This document shows positions 51,491 to 56,026 of a DNA stretch of 56,026 nucleotides, in pieces. Source of the stretch: Bacilli bacterium (GTDB taxonomy: Bacteria; Bacillota_I; Bacilli_A; ML615J-28; CAG-698). The translations under genes and the position numbers were made by a program. Every line of letters begins with the position of its first letter. Positions within the stretch are counted from its first letter, which is position 1. The stretch lies in NCBI GenBank assembly GCA_016296945.1, contig JAEDHQ010000002.1, positions 1-56,026 on the forward strand, given 5' to 3'. Below the pieces are notes generated by a model. It was not told the DNA's origin, made no database searches, and saw only the letters and a program-made list of their open reading frames with translations.

Positions 51491-52606
51491 ATGAGATGTA
51501 GAATTGAACGAGATCGATTAGGAGAAGTGGCGATTCCTCAAGAGGCTTATTACGGCATTGGGACTGTTCGTTCAAAAGATGCTTTTCAATTAACAAAACA
51601 CGGGTTATCCCGTCAAATGATTAAAGCTTTAGCGTTATGTAAAAAGGTGATTGCTAAGACTAATTGTGATATGGGATTACTTGAAAAAAGAAAAGCAGAA
51701 GCGATATGTTTGAGTGCCGATGAAATTTTGAATGGACGTTTACATGGTCAATTCATTACGGATGCTTTGCAAGATGGTTATGGATATGGTATGGATATGA
51801 ACGCTGCTGAAGTTATCTGTAATCGTGCGAATGAAATGTTAGGTAGTAGTAAAGGCAAATATGATATAGTAACATTACAAGAAGTAGATATGTTTACAAA
51901 CATTAAAGAAACAAATGTTTTGGTTGGAAGGTTATCAGCAGTTAAACTAACAAAAAAATTGATTGCGGAAAACAAGAAATCATATAATGCAATTCTTGAA
52001 AAATTAGAAGCATCTAATATTTCTAAAACTAGTAAAACATATTTACAGCTTATGAGTGTTGTTGAAATATTACAACGAGATACAAAGCGTGTTGATAAAG
52101 CAATGGATACTTTATTAGTATTTTCTTATGGTGAATCAGTTGATTTACCAATAGAACAAAAAGAGGAATATTTACGATGCTTTGTAAAAAACTTAAATGA
52201 AAATGTTACGGAAAAATATCAATTAAGTAAAAACTATTATACAACAAGTAACAACCTTGATTGTTTTATGAATTTATCTGCTGCTGTTAAAAATTTAATG
52301 ATTAATTTTTCTCGTTGTATGAGTGATTTAAAAGAACTAGCAAAGGAAGGCAAGATCAACTTTCCAAATGTTCAAGATATAGAAGTTTCAGCCCCAGATT
52401 TATTATTTGATTTTGTTAAACAAGTATCTTTTTATATAGTAGGAAATGACTTAACAGTATCAAGAACTATAGAGGCTGGTGTTATGAATGAAAATCCATA
52501 TATTCCGATTATCTTAGCTTCATTATTTGAAAGTATTAATCTTGTAAGAAGAGGAATTAGAACAATTAAAGAACGAGTTTTTGAAATAATGGAAATTAAA
52601 GAATAA
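51491..52606 (+). CDS. Truncated, catalytically degenerate aspartase/fumarase-superfamily homologue
   Basis: The N-terminus 'RIERDRLGEVAIPQEAYYGIGTVRS' and the block 'GNDLTVSRTIEAGVMNENPYIPII...FES' align with aspartase/class II fumarase. The 'GSSxMPxKxNP' SS-loop, the 'SQSTND' motif and the C-terminal domain are missing or replaced. Confidence 0.65.
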   Translation: MRCRIERDRLGEVAIPQEAYYGIGTVRSKDAFQLTKHGLSRQMIKALALCKKVIAKTNCDMGLLEKRKAEAICLSADEILNGRLHGQFITDALQDGYGYGMDMNAAEVICNRANEMLGSSKGKYDIVTLQEVDMFTNIKETNVLVGRLSAVKLTKKLIAENKKSYNAILEKLEASNISKTSKTYLQLMSVVEILQRDTKRVDKAMDTLLVFSYGESVDLPIEQKEEYLRCFVKNLNENVTEKYQLSKNYYTTSNNLDCFMNLSAAVKNLMINFSRCMSDLKELAKEGKINFPNVQDIEVSAPDLLFDFVKQVSFYIVGNDLTVSRTIEAGVMNENPYIPIILASLFESINLVRRGIRTIKERVFEIMEIKE

Positions 52607-52622
52607 TTATAATGCAAATAAA

Positions 52623-52659
52623 AAAGCAATATTGGTTTAACCAGTATTGCTTTGTTTTT
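52623..52659 (+). terminator. Terminator after the aspartase-like gene
   Basis: 13-bp stem aaagcaatattgg/ccagtattgcttt (one G-U pair) with a 5-nt loop, then a T-rich run. It overlaps the 5' end of the maximal RHS ORF. Confidence 0.8.
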
Positions 52660-52709
52660 ATAAAAACCAAATAATTAAACTAATTAATCATAATAATCCA
52701 CAAACACAT

Positions 52710-54608
52710 ATGTATATATATAAAGTTATGATTATGTTAAATGAAAACATCATAATGAATGGTTTTTATGAAGTAGAAGATATGTTAGAAATTAATAGTC
52801 TATCAGTTGCTTCATCAATAAACCATAGTTATTTTAAAGGAACAATGAATATGCTTTGTATAAATACACAAGATTGTTCATTCAATAACACAATAGATTT
52901 AGATAGTGGAGATAGAATTATCGATAAAGTAAATAATATGGGTCAATTAGTTTTACATCAAGTATTAAGAAATAATCAAAATAATATTAAACAAACCTTC
53001 ACTTATAAGAATGTTGACTCAGATAGTAATAGATGTTATAATGTAATAAACAAAGAAGAATTCTTTACTAATGATTTAAATAATCCAATAAGAAAAATAG
53101 AATATCAAAATGATCCATTTACATTAAATATAACAAAGAAAACATTAAGTAATCAAACACAATGTTTAGAAGATATCGAATATAATTATGATAAAAAAGG
53201 ACAATTGATTGAAGAAAGAAATCTAAGTGAAGATATAAAGATAACATATGCATATGATAAGAATGGAAACATGATAGAAAGAAGGAAGTATAATCTTTCT
53301 TTAAACACATTACTTGATCATAATACATATGAATATGATTATAATAATCCAAATAAGTTAACTAGTTATTATAAAGATAATACAAATTATAGTATTAGTT
53401 ATCATGTTAATATGTCATCATTCCCACAAGCAATCATAAATGAAGATACTAATAATACAGTATGCACATTTGAATGGGATTATAAAAGACTAACAAAATA
53501 TAGTATTGATCAAGATTATTATCTTAATTTTATATATAATGTAAATGGCTTAAGGACATCAAAAGTAATAGTTAATAATTATGCAGGAGGAACAATAACA
53601 CATAGTTATCGTTACTATAAGAATAGATTAATTGAAGAAGAAGTAATAGATGATATAAAAGGTGATGAATATAAATTACATTATTTATATGATCAATTTA
53701 ATGAATTATATGGCTTCAGATATGAAAATAATGAATACTATTATATAAAAGATAGCTTACATACAATAATAGGAATAATTAATTCATCAAAGCAAATAGT
53801 ATGTGAATATAGATATGATGGATATGGCAATCATTTAGTATATGATGGTAATAAAGTATTACAAACAGGAAGATACTTTATAGGTAATATAAATCCATTT
53901 AGATATAAAGGATATTATTATGATGTGGAAACTTCATTATTTTGGTTATCATCAAGGTATTATTCACCAGAATTATGTCGATTTATAAGTCCAGATGATG
54001 TAGAATATTTGGATCCTGAAAGTATCAATGGATTGAACTTATATGCGTATTGTGGAAATGATCCCGTTAATAAGTATGATCCTAGTGGGCATAGTGCAAT
54101 TTTAGCTATTTTAATTGCGGTAGGAATTTTAGCTGTAGATACAATTGTAGAAACTGCTATATTGATGAATTCAGACAAATATAAAGCTGAGAATGTTTAT
54201 CATGTTAATCCATCAACTGGTGAGGGAAATGTACATATTCCTAATTCTGCTGCATTTAATAACCCAATAGCTCAATTAATTTATTCTAATTATCTATATG
54301 AAAATGTAAAGAATAAAGATGGAAGCAATTTTTTTACAGGTGATCCTTATGATATTGTTGGTGAATGGCAAGCACATAATCTTGCGGCTAATTTAACAGG
54401 TTCATTAATGGTATTGGGTTTTATTCCTTTAGCATTACTATCAAATGGGGATTATTTTTGGTCAAAATTATATGATGCACACAGTCGTAGTGTTCATGCT
54501 GATATAGGTTCAAATATAAACTCTGACAAAATAGGTATAGTTAGATTTATATCAAAGATTTATAAATGGATTATAAAAATTATAAGCTTCGATATTCTTA
54601 ATTGGTAA
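52710..54608 (+). CDS. RHS/YD-repeat protein with RHS-core motif and a variable hydrophobic C-terminal (toxin-like) domain
   Basis: YD repeats ('YNYDKKGQLIEE', 'YAYDKNGNMIER', 'YRYDGYGNH') and the RHS core end 'RYYSPELCRFISPDD...NLYAYCGNDPVNKYDPSGH'. The start is uncertain: ATGs lie at 52710, 52728, 52734 and 52755, none with a clear Shine-Dalgarno. Confidence 0.85.
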   Translation: MYIYKVMIMLNENIIMNGFYEVEDMLEINSLSVASSINHSYFKGTMNMLCINTQDCSFNNTIDLDSGDRIIDKVNNMGQLVLHQVLRNNQNNIKQTFTYKNVDSDSNRCYNVINKEEFFTNDLNNPIRKIEYQNDPFTLNITKKTLSNQTQCLEDIEYNYDKKGQLIEERNLSEDIKITYAYDKNGNMIERRKYNLSLNTLLDHNTYEYDYNNPNKLTSYYKDNTNYSISYHVNMSSFPQAIINEDTNNTVCTFEWDYKRLTKYSIDQDYYLNFIYNVNGLRTSKVIVNNYAGGTITHSYRYYKNRLIEEEVIDDIKGDEYKLHYLYDQFNELYGFRYENNEYYYIKDSLHTIIGIINSSKQIVCEYRYDGYGNHLVYDGNKVLQTGRYFIGNINPFRYKGYYYDVETSLFWLSSRYYSPELCRFISPDDVEYLDPESINGLNLYAYCGNDPVNKYDPSGHSAILAILIAVGILAVDTIVETAILMNSDKYKAENVYHVNPSTGEGNVHIPNSAAFNNPIAQLIYSNYLYENVKNKDGSNFFTGDPYDIVGEWQAHNLAANLTGSLMVLGFIPLALLSNGDYFWSKLYDAHSRSVHADIGSNINSDKIGIVRFISKIYKWIIKIISFDILNW

Positions 54609-54632
54609 TTTTATATAAAAAGGAGGAATCGT

Positions 54633-55172
54633 ATGAAAAAAATAAAGGCAATTTCAGTATTAATCTTTTCTGGATTTATAGTTGCATTGATATTTGGGTT
54701 TTTAATCGATATTGATTCCAAAAAAAATGTTATAAGAACAAGTGATAAATCACTTTATGAGATGAATGAATATTATTTCTTACCTAGCTATAATGAATTT
54801 GAATATAAAGAGAATGTTACTGGATTTTACACATATGATTCCTCTAATACACTTTTTGGAGGAAGTGTTTCTTATGTATTAGAATTACAATTTGCAACTA
54901 AAAAAGTCTATAATGAATTTTTAGAATATGAGTACACAAGATATGAATATGATAGTAATTCAATCATTTTAAAAAATAATTATGAATGTTATTTGTGTTT
55001 GAATGAAGATATTACTCAATATTATTATGGTGAATATATGCCGTATGCGTTAGGAATGTTATGTTTAAATGAAAAAGATATAAAAATTAGATATGTATAC
55101 TATGTTAATATAGAACATTCCATAGATAATAAATTTAATGATGTATTTCAAAATACAAATTGTACTTGGTGA
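54633..55172 (+). CDS. Candidate cognate immunity protein (membrane-anchored)
   Basis: 179-aa ORF starting 24 nt after the RHS stop, with a strong AAAGGAGG Shine-Dalgarno and an N-terminal TM/signal-anchor (AISVLIFSGFIVALIFGFLI). No known family. The call rests on position only. Confidence 0.5.
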   Translation: MKKIKAISVLIFSGFIVALIFGFLIDIDSKKNVIRTSDKSLYEMNEYYFLPSYNEFEYKENVTGFYTYDSSNTLFGGSVSYVLELQFATKKVYNEFLEYEYTRYEYDSNSIILKNNYECYLCLNEDITQYYYGEYMPYALGMLCLNEKDIKIRYVYYVNIEHSIDNKFNDVFQNTNCTW

Positions 55173-55247
55173 ATGTAGCGCATTTAGAAATACCATTAAG
55201 GGAATTCCTCCTAAGTTGTGAAGGCCTAATATTTAAAGGAGAAAATA

Positions 55248-55829
55248 ATGAAGAAATATATCATCTCAATAATTATTTTTGTATTATTGTTTACTTTAGG
55301 CGGATGTAGATATAAAGGTTATTATGAAATAAAAATACCTACAGATAGTACTTTAAGAGGAACTATTAAAATACCTAATGAATGGGAGTTTATTACTGAA
55401 GATGGAGTTGTGAAATTAATAGAAAAGGAAACAAAGGAAGTAATAGCTGAACAAATAGTACAAGGACATATGAATTTTAGTCATTATCCACATAATGATT
55501 ATGTTGATCCTATTTTTACAAATATTTAAAATTTAAAATTTAATCAAAACATTAATTTTGATATAAAAAATGTGAAAAAATATGATTATGTAAAAGGATA
55601 TTCTAATGCGATTGTGTATTATGAGTTTGAAAGTGAACAAAAAAATTATGTCGTTTTAAAATTTGAAATTTATGATGATAAAAATTTAAACCCTTATTAC
55701 TTATTTATGTTTTTTTATGATATTGATGAAAAAATAGAATTAGAAAAAATTATAAATTCGTATTGTTTTGGTGGAACACTAGGATATGAAAAAAATCATA
55801 TCTATGATGAAGATTACAAATCTAATTAA
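55248..55829 (+). pseudogene. Lipoprotein gene interrupted by a single in-frame TAA (possible orphan immunity gene)
   Basis: ORFs 55248-55529 (lipobox 'TLGGC') and 55572-55829 (GTG-only start, no Shine-Dalgarno) are in the same frame. They are separated only by the TAA at 55527-55529 plus 14 sense codons. Confidence 0.55.
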
Positions 55830-55873
55830 TTATTTAATGAATTAACAGAAACAAACATCACTTTTAACATAAA

Positions 55874-55908
55874 GGGTGGAACTGAGTAATATTAGTTTCA
55901 CCTTTCTT
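55874..55908 (+). terminator. Terminator after the RHS locus
   Basis: 9-bp stem ggtggaact/agtttcacc (one G-U pair) with a 10-nt loop, followed by TTTCTT. Confidence 0.6.
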
Positions 55909-56026
55909 ACATTTAGTGGACAAGAGCGAAACCTGGGTATCCCAGTTGTCGCAACAGTCGAAAATGCTACTTGTTGCATTTTCCTTATCCTCGTAAGGTA
56001 TCGGTGGGGACACTTTTGGCAGACGG
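55909..56026. other. GC-rich, hairpin-dense segment truncated by the window end (structured RNA or edge of a foreign element)
   Basis: By hand count it is about half G+C, against strongly AT-rich flanks. It carries consecutive local hairpins: ctggg-tat-cccag, gcaaca-(15 nt)-tgttgc and cctta-tcctcg-taagg. No start codon opens a plausible plus-strand ORF. Confidence 0.4.

Follow-up and report, generated by a model that had tools for sequence, protein, structure and literature searches.

An rhs fragment with a rare C-terminal toxin domain, probably an orphan-type cassette, in a Bacilli genome

Near the end of the stretch of DNA analysed here (the window, 56,026 nucleotides), an open reading frame of 1.9 kb encodes YD repeats, an Rhs-associated core and a 171-aa tail. 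The locus raises the question of whether such a short RHS protein is a compact toxin, complete in itself, or what is left of a longer one. A sequence-only reading had offered two answers: a new membrane-targeting toxin with an unknown export route, or a 5'-truncated orphan cassette. From the first, the new family stands, but neither a compact RHS nor a special export route is needed; the second, a 5' truncation, is supported by the N-terminal remnant, a frameshift in another strain, the partial shell and an orphan copy in a related genome. The locus is probably the 3' portion of an RHS toxin gene that has lost its 5' part, forming an orphan-type rhs-CT/immunity cassette behind the terminator of a lyase gene. 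The features of the locus are as follows.

52623-52653, + strand: intrinsic terminator (14-bp stem, then a T run) belonging to Lyase_1, the gene upstream (51491-52606)
52647-54608, + strand: maximal rhs ORF, 653 codons from TTG 52647, without in-frame stops
52710-54608, + strand: rhs gene, probably 5'-truncated, 632 codons from ATG 52710; ATG 52782 and ATG 52851 are alternative starts
52710-52910, + strand: N-terminal remnant without signal peptide, predicted disordered (AlphaFold pLDDT 26-36 over aa 1-60)
52911-53969, + strand: fragment of a YD-repeat beta-shell (aa 68-420, ~26 strands, AlphaFold pLDDT ~90), its 3' part overlapping the core
53814-54092, + strand: Rhs-associated core (aa 369-461; TIGR03696 Rhs_assc_core), ending PVNKYDPSGH
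54078-54092, + strand: DPSGH motif, with a putative aspartyl autoproteolysis site after DPSG
54093-54605, + strand: C-terminal toxin domain, 171 aa, from a family not described before (hydrophobic helix, conserved core, non-conserved hydrophobic stretch, amphipathic C-terminal helix)
54620-54626, + strand: strong Shine-Dalgarno (AAGGAGG) of the immunity gene
54633-55172, + strand: cognate immunity gene, 179 aa; aa 1-29 form an N-terminal signal-anchor helix, and a domain with three invariant Cys is predicted to lie outside the cytoplasm
55248-55829, + strand: orphan immunity-type lipoprotein pseudogene, 193 codons, with an in-frame TAA at 55527-55529
55862-55991, + strand: terminator hairpin (55872-55905) and conserved structured non-coding element

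Neither a signal peptide nor an LXG or other trafficking domain had been seen by the earlier reading, and this is borne out by the lack of an N-terminal hydrophobic segment or domain match and by the first ~65 aa, which AlphaFold predicts to be disordered (pLDDT <40). When the first 167 aa were used as query in a word-indexed homology search, there were no matches. Against a profile built from longer relatives, hhalign (probability 88.6%, E 2.7e-6) places aa 63-211 on columns 290-430, with no part before aa 63 aligning; the short segment FKGTMNMLCINTQDCS (52833-52880) is the counterpart of the final strand in the lectin-like domain that these longer proteins have. For the shell fragment, the equivalent in a 2043-aa RHS is the final ~310 aa of shell. 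All five YD-repeat peptides quoted earlier are present in the translation, TIGR01643 YD_repeat scores 20.2 (cut-off 15.8), and Pfam RHS_repeat stays below threshold (13.1 vs a cut-off of 22). Foldseek matches the shell model to Rhs, Tc and teneurin shells (E ~1e-17); against TcC half-shells the TMt is ~0.38, and against complete Rhs shells it falls to 0.10-0.16. The AlphaFold model does not form a closed, toxin-encapsulating cocoon: its ~350 aa and 26 strands make up about a third of one.

The core is intact. TIGR03696 matches aa 369-461 with 65.9 bits (cut-off 32.5, E 3.5e-18), in line with the canonical core that had been recognised as ending in DPSGH at 54092; the sequence RFISPDD...NDPVNKYDPSGH is present, and a profile including the core region matches the Rhs and TcC cores of the PDB. 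Cleavage after DPSG is putative, judged from the motif. The figure of about 460 aa before the core needs correction, however, since ~368 aa precede the core domain and it is the cleavage site that 461 aa precede. Homology with orphan cassettes of other genomes begins at ~53880.

At its 5' end, the maximal ORF does overlap the upstream terminator, as had been pointed out: its TTG (52647) falls inside it. The statement that no candidate ATG has a Shine-Dalgarno holds for the other starts but not for ATG 52851, which has AAAGGA 9 nt upstream and coincides with the annotated start of a relative (P0004). By eye only, the start of a further relative (P0024) seems to fall at this position too. No promoter-like site was found at the scan threshold on the + strand between 52654 and 52850, in a scan that is uninformative in such AT-rich DNA (40 sites vs 36 expected, the best, at 53014-53042, lying inside the ORF). 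In strain L018, the frame that opens at ATG 52710 is lost through deletion of 1 nt near 52762. There is no full-length rhs upstream at the window locus, where the preceding gene is Lyase_1, and no secretion-system gene among the annotated neighbours, which cover most of the 56-kb contig. The reading frame itself has remained open, whereas the other two frames contain 75 and 119 stops (chance of an open frame ~2e-30). A 1.9-kb frame fully open at ~25% GC indicates that the copy is either recent or still under selection, and it may yield a functional product.

Orphan rhs-CT/rhsI modules are established: the core sequence that they retain varies, initiation signals are absent and the immunity gene is expressible (PMC3150448; PMC3967940). 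The definition used here follows PMC3150448. The window cassette retains about one third of the YD shell, the Rhs core with PxxxxDPSGH (the putative cut falling between G and H), the 171-aa tail and a separately translatable immunity gene. It is thus a 3' fragment with a core and an expressible immunity gene, lacking the 5' part and convincing initiation signals, and the same CT/immunity module is linked to a full-length rhs elsewhere (L030, P0226). L030 was the one locus returned by a scan of the genome collection with the single window protein. In this related Bacilli MAG, a 2043-aa RHS with a signal peptide and its immunity gene are followed by three orphan cassettes, one of which has 93% nucleotide identity to window positions 53880-55203 (core end, tail and immunity gene). 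P0226 is a more distant case, in which a tail-family member is fused to a 1694-aa RHS. Other full-length relatives with signal peptides measure 2063 aa (L035) and ~2080 aa (L028), and shorter versions are found next to unrelated housekeeping genes, one split into 180+185 aa (L005) and one of 397 aa (L015). The length upstream of the cleavage site forms a continuum from 20 to 1533 aa, many of the values coming from short contigs and so maybe cut at their ends. As had been expected, toxins are swapped exactly at DPxG[H/C/N], where relatives carry AHH, Tox-REase-9 and Ntox37 domains; several have glycine-rich hydrophobic tails directly after DPxG.

Some relatives look compact, and two of them are pieces of ~1800-2080-aa RHS genes split by a frameshift or a stop codon. 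The "658-aa RHS" of L028, for instance, is the product of a 1-nt deletion in its ~2080-aa gene. In at least one case the lectin-like domain lies in the middle of an RHS, the 1007-aa RHS ORF of L032 being in frame with P0103 across a single TGA. Recoding of this TGA was considered but finds no support in the neighbouring genes of L032, whose lengths are normal. A lectin domain with a short RHS was discarded as an architecture of its own, since the L032 domain is internal to the longer TGA-interrupted frame and the short L028 form results from the deletion. "Lectin-like" is a loose label: P0096 is the one protein in which Pfam detects Laminin_G_3, and there only faintly. There are also medium relatives of 687-882 aa that start at the lectin-like domain and have no signal peptide (L026, L007, L031). 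No rhs gene is called immediately upstream of them, orphan cassettes follow them in L026 and L007, and this medium lectin-RHS form might be functional in its own right. The membrane proteins encoded upstream were considered as a dedicated exporter and rejected, those of L007 and L026 being unrelated.

The tail is a new toxin domain, set in an ordinary gene arrangement. Its description as unassigned holds: neither sequence searches nor Foldseek on the predicted structure gave a known toxin family. The 171 aa have no match in Pfam, NCBIfam, PHROG or PDB sequences, and a tail profile matched PDB sequences only through its Rhs-core columns. The AlphaFold model is all-helical and confident (pLDDT 93.4, pTM 0.85), with no fold neighbour in the PDB (top Foldseek match E 3.2, TM <=0.31) and no match in the BFVD viral structure library. 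It begins with a hydrophobic helix (54096-54170) and ends with an amphipathic one; between them lies a conserved core, IPNS..FNNPIAQ..YS.YL...GD.YDIVGEWQAHN (54237-54380). Residues S52, N57, Q61, E91, Q93 and N96 are invariant in the family and H95 nearly so, with an invariant GEWQxHN-type motif, and from their conservation these polar residues look like a candidate active or binding site. The family is rare (56 of 1.84 billion representatives) and is joined to RHS sequence wherever upstream sequence exists. Tail and immunity gene are linked and co-vary. Measured against orphan copies, dN/dS is 0.7-0.9 for the tail and 0.23-0.33 for the immunity gene; across the family, the tail has a dN/dS of 0.27-0.31, which indicates purifying selection.

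That an immunity gene should follow the toxin had also been proposed, and the relatives bear this out: homologues of the gene at 54633-55172 trail the tail homologues in L005, L015 and L030, and L007 has the same cassette with an IS110 element inserted between the two. In two distant branches of the tail family, the immunity proteins are lipoproteins. The next gene in the window, the lipoprotein pseudogene, shows as two ORFs (93 and 85 aa) because of its in-frame TAA, and an intact copy follows an orphan rhs-CT in L035. The structured element at the 3' end also trails arrays of rhs cassettes in L007 and L030, and has no match in Rfam. By the positive-inside rule and lipoboxes, the immunity proteins face outwards, and this topology, the sole guide to the location, suggests a site of toxin action outside the cytoplasm, on the outer side of the membrane.

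Taken together, these features can be arranged into a model. The ancestral gene would have lost its export signal, most of the shell and an internal lectin-like domain, and the remaining RHS fragment is probably not secreted in its present form. The cassette may have been kept because its immunity gene would protect against neighbours delivering the same toxin. Through the conserved core sequence at ~53880-54092, toxin and immunity gene could be transferred by recombination to a full-length, Sec-exported RHS such as that of the related genome. On such a carrier, the tail, once cut after DPSG, would use the hydrophobic helix at its N terminus as an anchor, and its conserved helical domain would work on the outer side of the cytoplasmic membrane of the target. 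Attack on a substrate in the envelope or associated with the membrane seems likelier than a simple pore of two helices. In the producer, the outward-facing, membrane-anchored immunity protein would neutralise the tail.

Two other accounts of the gene itself have to be weighed. It could encode a functional mini-RHS: the protein of 585-632 aa, or its lectin-bearing cousins (680-880 aa), would leave the cell by a route not yet recognised and deliver the tail, perhaps as a TcC-like half-shell paired with a separately encoded partner. The intact ORF, the SD-like AAAGGA before an ATG that coincides with the called start of P0004, TcC subunits as the best structural matches (TM ~0.4) and the signal-peptide-free medium relatives without an adjacent upstream rhs (L007, L026, L031) all speak for this account. 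It has to contend, however, with the lack of any signal peptide, LXG or trafficking domain before a predicted disordered N terminus of 65 aa, with annotated surroundings (most of the 56-kb contig) in which secretion-system genes were not seen, and with membrane proteins upstream of the medium relatives that are not mutually homologous. The two split genes among the compact relatives, the frameshift in the 5' region of one strain and the lack of a promoter-like site after the terminator weigh in the same direction, and we consider a functional mini-RHS quite unlikely. An assembly chimera or a dead pseudogene without biological role would fit a locus at the end of a MAG contig, next to a lipoprotein pseudogene and in a gene within which many metagenome contigs break. 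Four contigs from four sequencing runs nevertheless match parts of 52988-55954 with 100% identity (the longest match covering 2943 nt), and a fifth, from another strain in another sample (L018), reads across from lyase to rhs with 97% identity. No assembly artefact is involved. Since the immunity gene is also intact, with a strong Shine-Dalgarno and a dN/dS of 0.23-0.40, and purifying selection acts on the tail throughout the family, this account as a whole is hardly credible. The orphan-type cassette thus remains the preferred explanation of the gene.

How the tail acts is a separate matter, whatever the state of its carrier. The two strongly hydrophobic helices noted earlier are present as segments (tail aa 1-26 and 97-117), and with the amphipathic C-terminal helix, the all-helical model and a membrane-anchored immunity protein they could point to a pore-forming or ionophore toxin, whose hydrophobic helices would insert and dissipate the membrane potential. 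The second helix is, however, not conserved, being hydrophilic or absent in many members of the family (P0129, P0130, P0224, P0232). The first follows DPxG in 106 of the 113 C-terminal regions of the same clade that lack the EWxxHN motif, one AHH nuclease region and one Ntox37 region among them; by this sequence distribution, it is a generic junction feature of the clade's C-terminal toxins. These two observations weaken the argument for a pore. Conservation is moreover concentrated in the polar residues listed above, the model is unlike any solved pore-forming domain in Foldseek, and the immunity protein consists of a single anchor and a globular ectodomain, whereas immunity to pore-formers is typically provided by a polytopic membrane protein. 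A pore is for these reasons unlikely. Scarcely less doubtful, and put forward tentatively, is a broader proposal: that the EWxxHN tail is a new toxin fold hitting a membrane-proximal envelope target from outside, and that the helix directly behind the cleavage site is a shared membrane-insertion or translocation device. The scope of such a device would be RHS cargo in Gram-positive bacteria; the helix is seen on nearly all toxin regions of the clade, nucleases included. A bolder and less likely extension of this proposal would make the medium RHS forms without a signal peptide, the window copy among them, functional half-shells that leave the cell by an unknown route.

As an arrangement, the locus is routine: both orphan rhs cassettes and immunity islands are familiar features. 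Reading the compact RHS as a truncated one removes its main surprise. What is new is a rare toxin/immunity family absent from domain databases. Its structure is predicted with confidence and resembles no known fold, and candidate catalytic residues are clear, so that the family is ready for experiment. Extracytoplasmic action, if true, would extend the short list of envelope-targeting interbacterial toxins of Gram-positive bacteria, and the clade-wide hydrophobic helix after the autoproteolysis site hints at a common delivery step for Firmicutes RHS cargo. The locus also holds a caution for annotation: among the short MAG proteins named "RHS repeat-associated core domain proteins", many are mere pieces of longer ones.

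Several known systems can be compared with this locus; a paper on S8-PTS (PMC9424270) was set aside as irrelevant to it. Colicin M/Cmi and TelC/TipC are envelope-acting toxins with outward-facing immunity proteins. They serve by analogy only, through a membrane-anchored immunity protein with a globular domain outside the cytoplasm. The colicin M motif is DxYD(x5)HR, which the D-x-Y-D...H-N of the window tail (DPYDIVGEWQAHN) superficially recalls, with a spacing of 7 instead of 5 and N in place of R. A colicin M-like identity was rejected, the D/Y/D residues not being conserved in distant members; Foldseek matches the tail to neither colicin M nor TelC, and it belongs to neither family. TcC subunits (YenC2 4igl, RHS2 5kis, TccC2 6l7i) are the best matches of the shell-plus-core model (TM ~0.40). 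Taken alone, a TcC subunit is, like the window protein, a part-cocoon ending in the same aspartyl-protease core, but the window shell is roughly half as long, no TcB- or TcA-like partner gene is found at the window locus, and the sequence kinship is limited to generic YD/core homology.

Closer in plan is WapA, a Sec-exported RHS toxin of Gram-positive bacteria, known from Bacillus subtilis and from Streptococcus suis (for the latter, PMC12704120). The full-length relatives of the window gene share its plan, with a signal peptide, a long YD shell, an Rhs core, a variable toxin and an immunity gene in L030, L035 and L028; wall-binding repeats were not detected. The window copy differs further in having no signal peptide and only a third of the shell. 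To our knowledge, the characterised toxin domains of WapA are tRNases, to which the window tail, paired with an extracytoplasmic immunity protein, is unrelated. The closest likeness is to the enterobacterial orphan rhs-CT/rhsI modules (Poole et al. 2011, Koskiniemi et al. 2014). Both are 3' fragments with a core and a DPxG junction, followed by a variable toxin and its cognate immunity gene; in both, the toxin fragment is without good initiation signals and the immunity gene has them, the upstream rhs sequence retained is variable, and the same module lies behind a full-length rhs in other genomes. The window fragment is nevertheless unusually long (about 400 aa of shell) and stands alone beside a housekeeping gene, not directly behind a full-length rhs. 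Its host is a low-GC, spore-forming Firmicute, and the full-length partners of its relatives carry Sec signal peptides in place of T6SS-linked N-termini.

The window is an entire NCBI MAG contig (56,026 bp, about 25% GC) carrying housekeeping and sporulation genes for RecA, RNase Y, SpoVS, CotE, FtsH, YabP/YabQ, and MurA; no gene for a secretion system was recognised among those annotated around the rhs locus, which take in most of the contig. The rhs ORF (52647..54608, + strand) spans 653 codons counted from TTG, or 632 from ATG 52710, and has no in-frame stop, against 75 and 119 in the remaining two frames. Given the DNA composition, the probability of this frame staying open is about 2e-30. 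What the sequence-only reading had observed, from the ORF to its tail, holds overall: the YD peptides it quoted all occur in the translation, the core ends in DPSGH at 54078-54092, and the maximal ORF does overlap the terminator (52623-52653) of the Lyase_1 gene that precedes it. NCBIfam places an Rhs-associated core (TIGR03696) at aa 369-461 (65.9 bits, E 3.5e-18) and scores a YD repeat above cut-off, with Pfam RHS_repeat sub-threshold. Parts of 52988-55954 are matched at 100% identity by four contigs from four sequencing runs, and a fifth contig from another strain (L018) covers the lyase/rhs junction with 97% identity, so assembly error does not account for the arrangement.

Two accounts of the short RHS part had been offered: a new compact, membrane-targeting RHS toxin with an unknown export route, or a 5'-truncated orphan cassette. 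RHS proteins from low-GC Firmicutes form the large clade into which the window protein falls (2291 matches in the first search). Ahead of the cleavage site, these proteins form a continuous length series of 20 to 1533 aa, a spread partly due to genes cut at contig ends. Apparently compact members of this clade have no defined architecture. One of them, P0078 (658 aa), arises by a 1-nt deletion in an RHS of about 2080 aa with a signal peptide (locus L028); the deletion lies in a TATATA run at L028 9950-10000 and leaves ORFs of 1422 and 658 aa, the latter standing in databases as a 'compact RHS'. Another, P0103 (794 aa), starts with a lectin-like domain and is in frame with an upstream 1007-aa RHS ORF across a single TGA (L032 4896-10385), so that the domain is internal to a long RHS there. 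The context of this stop is GEIG-TGA-VILSNG, and nonsense mutation, readthrough, and recoding are candidate causes. Lectin-domain-first RHS genes of 687-882 aa without a signal peptide also occur at L007 3622-5685, L026 10001-12169, and L031 8001-10649; no rhs gene is called immediately upstream of them, and orphan cassettes come after those of L007 and L026.

In the window protein, residues 63-211 (653-aa numbering) align to columns 290-430 of a profile built from five longer relatives (hhalign, probability 88.6%, E 2.7e-6). On this alignment, FKGTMNMLCINTQDCS (52833-52880) corresponds to the final strand of the lectin-like domain, all before it being missing. The AlphaFold model (40-sequence alignment) has residues 1-60 at pLDDT 26-36, followed by about 26 beta strands over aa 68-420 at pLDDT of about 90. 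A Foldseek search with this shell matched those of Rhs, Tc, and teneurin proteins (E about 1e-17); the target-normalised TM was only 0.10-0.16 against complete Rhs shells and about 0.38 against TcC subunits, themselves partial shells. In BLASTP, the window shell aligns with the final ~310 shell residues of an RHS of 2043 aa. The frame from ATG 52710 is closed in strain L018 by a 1-nt deletion near 52762. The claim that no candidate ATG has a Shine-Dalgarno is right for the early ATGs and wrong for ATG 52851, which has AAAGGA 9 nt upstream and occupies the same position as the called start of the related protein P0004. No promoter-like site was found at scan threshold on the + strand from the terminator to 52850, the scan being weak in AT-rich DNA. 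The strongest sigma-70-like site of the region lies inside the ORF on the coding strand, at 53014-53042 (TTGACT, 17 nt, TATAAT, upstream TG; 11/12 matches); it may have arisen by chance in AT-rich DNA, or may be a promoter within the gene that drives its 3' part together with the immunity gene.

The same cassette exists elsewhere. A genome-collection search gave one match, L030 ("MAG: Bacilli bacterium", JAZSNL010000020.1), which is arranged in textbook fashion: the 2043-aa RHS, with a signal peptide at its N-terminus, comes first, then its immunity lipoprotein gene, then three orphan cassettes, each starting within the Rhs core. The second of these, with its 179-aa partner, shares 93% nucleotide identity with window 53880-55203. 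Homology starts at the core beginning (NPFRYKGYYYD), as expected for recombination via conserved core sequence. On L035, another contig of that MAG, a signal-peptide protein of 2063 aa closely resembles the L030 RHS at its N-terminus and is likewise followed by orphan cassettes. Window-type cassettes also appear in L005, as a split 180+185-aa fragment 3' of acetate kinase, in L015, as a 397-aa ORF 3' of a DHH phosphoesterase gene, and in L007, where an inserted IS110 separates the tail from its immunity gene. This IS110-family transposase lies at L007 8546-9715, and the IS110/immunity arrangement recurs in several of the metagenome contigs matched by that immunity protein.

The 171-aa tail (54093-54605) has no match in Pfam, NCBIfam, or PHROGs; when PDB sequences were searched with a profile, only its Rhs-core columns gave matches. 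A word-indexed search gave 24 homologues, preceded by an Rhs core end wherever upstream sequence exists, and a profile search of 1.84 billion representatives returned only 56 tail matches at E ≤ 1e-3. Among the ten longest of these, scanned against Pfam, seven have RHS matches, including the 1694-aa RHS P0226, and two more look like a chance match and an odd fusion. Conserved elements are a hydrophobic helix with DTIVET, then IPNSxxFNNPIAQxIYSxYL, DGxxFFTGDxYDIVGEWQAHN, and later xVHxDxG; S52, N57, Q61, E91, Q93, and N96 are invariant and H95 nearly so. Distant branches retain NS...P...YGYSFYLN...G(F/G)EWxxHN...VDxGxTIF. The AlphaFold model is helical and confident (pLDDT 93.4, pTM 0.85), with no neighbours in the PDB (best E 3.2, TM ≤ 0.31) or BFVD. 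Tail swapping at the DPSGH junction, which had been predicted, is borne out: toxin regions in the clade change exactly after DPxG[H/C/N], to AHH, Tox-REase-9, Ntox37, and several glycine-rich hydrophobic tails. The tail/immunity pair is a new, rare family inside a well-known kind of system.

The membrane-helix-rich character ascribed to the tail stands for the window copy, which has two hydrophobic helices, and loses its weight as a sign of a pore. Among relatives P0001-P0120 of the window ORF, 113 toxin regions are without the EWxxHN motif, and in 106 of these, among them an AHH nuclease region and an Ntox37 region, a TM-like helix directly follows DPxG, so the first helix is a generic junction feature; the second is hydrophilic or absent in many family members. 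The post-cleavage helix may serve the clade as a common means of membrane insertion or translocation. The polar residues that are conserved form a pattern more in line with an enzyme or specific binder than with a simple pore. As had been expected, an immunity gene follows the toxin: 54633-55172, with a strong SD, encodes a 179-aa partner that co-varies with the tail (identity to the window copy 95% in L030, 97% in L007, 85% in L015, and 47% in L005). Its N-terminus is rich in lysine, a single hydrophobic helix is present, and its domain, in which three Cys are invariant, would face outwards by the positive-inside rule. Two distant tail branches have lipoprotein partners (L030 12078-12950; the 193-aa P0192 in L035). 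From this topology and these partners together, the tail is predicted to act at the outer face of the membrane; such action, by an enzyme or binder rather than a pore, is the least secure step.

Further 3', ORFs 55248-55529 and 55572-55829 are the two parts of a 193-codon lipoprotein gene, of orphan immunity type, that an in-frame stop interrupts:

55248-55829, + strand, lipoprotein pseudogene with TAA at 55527-55529, leaving small ORFs of 93 and 85 aa

The intact homologues P0187 and P0192 have GAA at this codon. In L035, the intact gene comes after another orphan rhs-CT; the tail of that rhs-CT (NAPLYAIYL...ELQAHY) seems distantly related to the EWQAHN tail. After a terminator (55872-55905) comes a structured element, conserved and about 130 nt long, which also occurs 3' of the rhs cassette arrays in L007 and L030. 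The conserved non-coding stretch (window 55862-55991; L007 11929-12058; L030 13172-13322; partly L005 12452-12528) comprises the terminator hairpin and three predicted stems, in one of which a G-C pair is replaced by A-U, a compensatory change. Rfam has no match for the stretch, which in the window lies about 35 nt from the contig end. It could be a leader, a small RNA, or a mobile-element end.

The missing 5' part, the partial shell, the L018 frameshift, and the L030 orphan copy support the 5'-truncated orphan cassette; the locus can be accounted for without invoking a new compact RHS that leaves the cell by an unknown route. Across the family, tail dN/dS is 0.27-0.31; against near-identical orphan copies it is 0.7-0.9 for the tail and 0.23-0.33 for the immunity gene, values that rest on small substitution counts and agree with the orphan-cassette reading. 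Specialists would find nothing surprising in the arrangement; the modest, testable leads are the toxin family and the helix that follows the cleavage site across the clade. Orphan rhs-CT/rhsI modules retain variable lengths of rhs sequence and have poor toxin initiation signals and expressible immunity genes (PMC3150448; PMC3967940), and the properties of the window-type cassettes match theirs.
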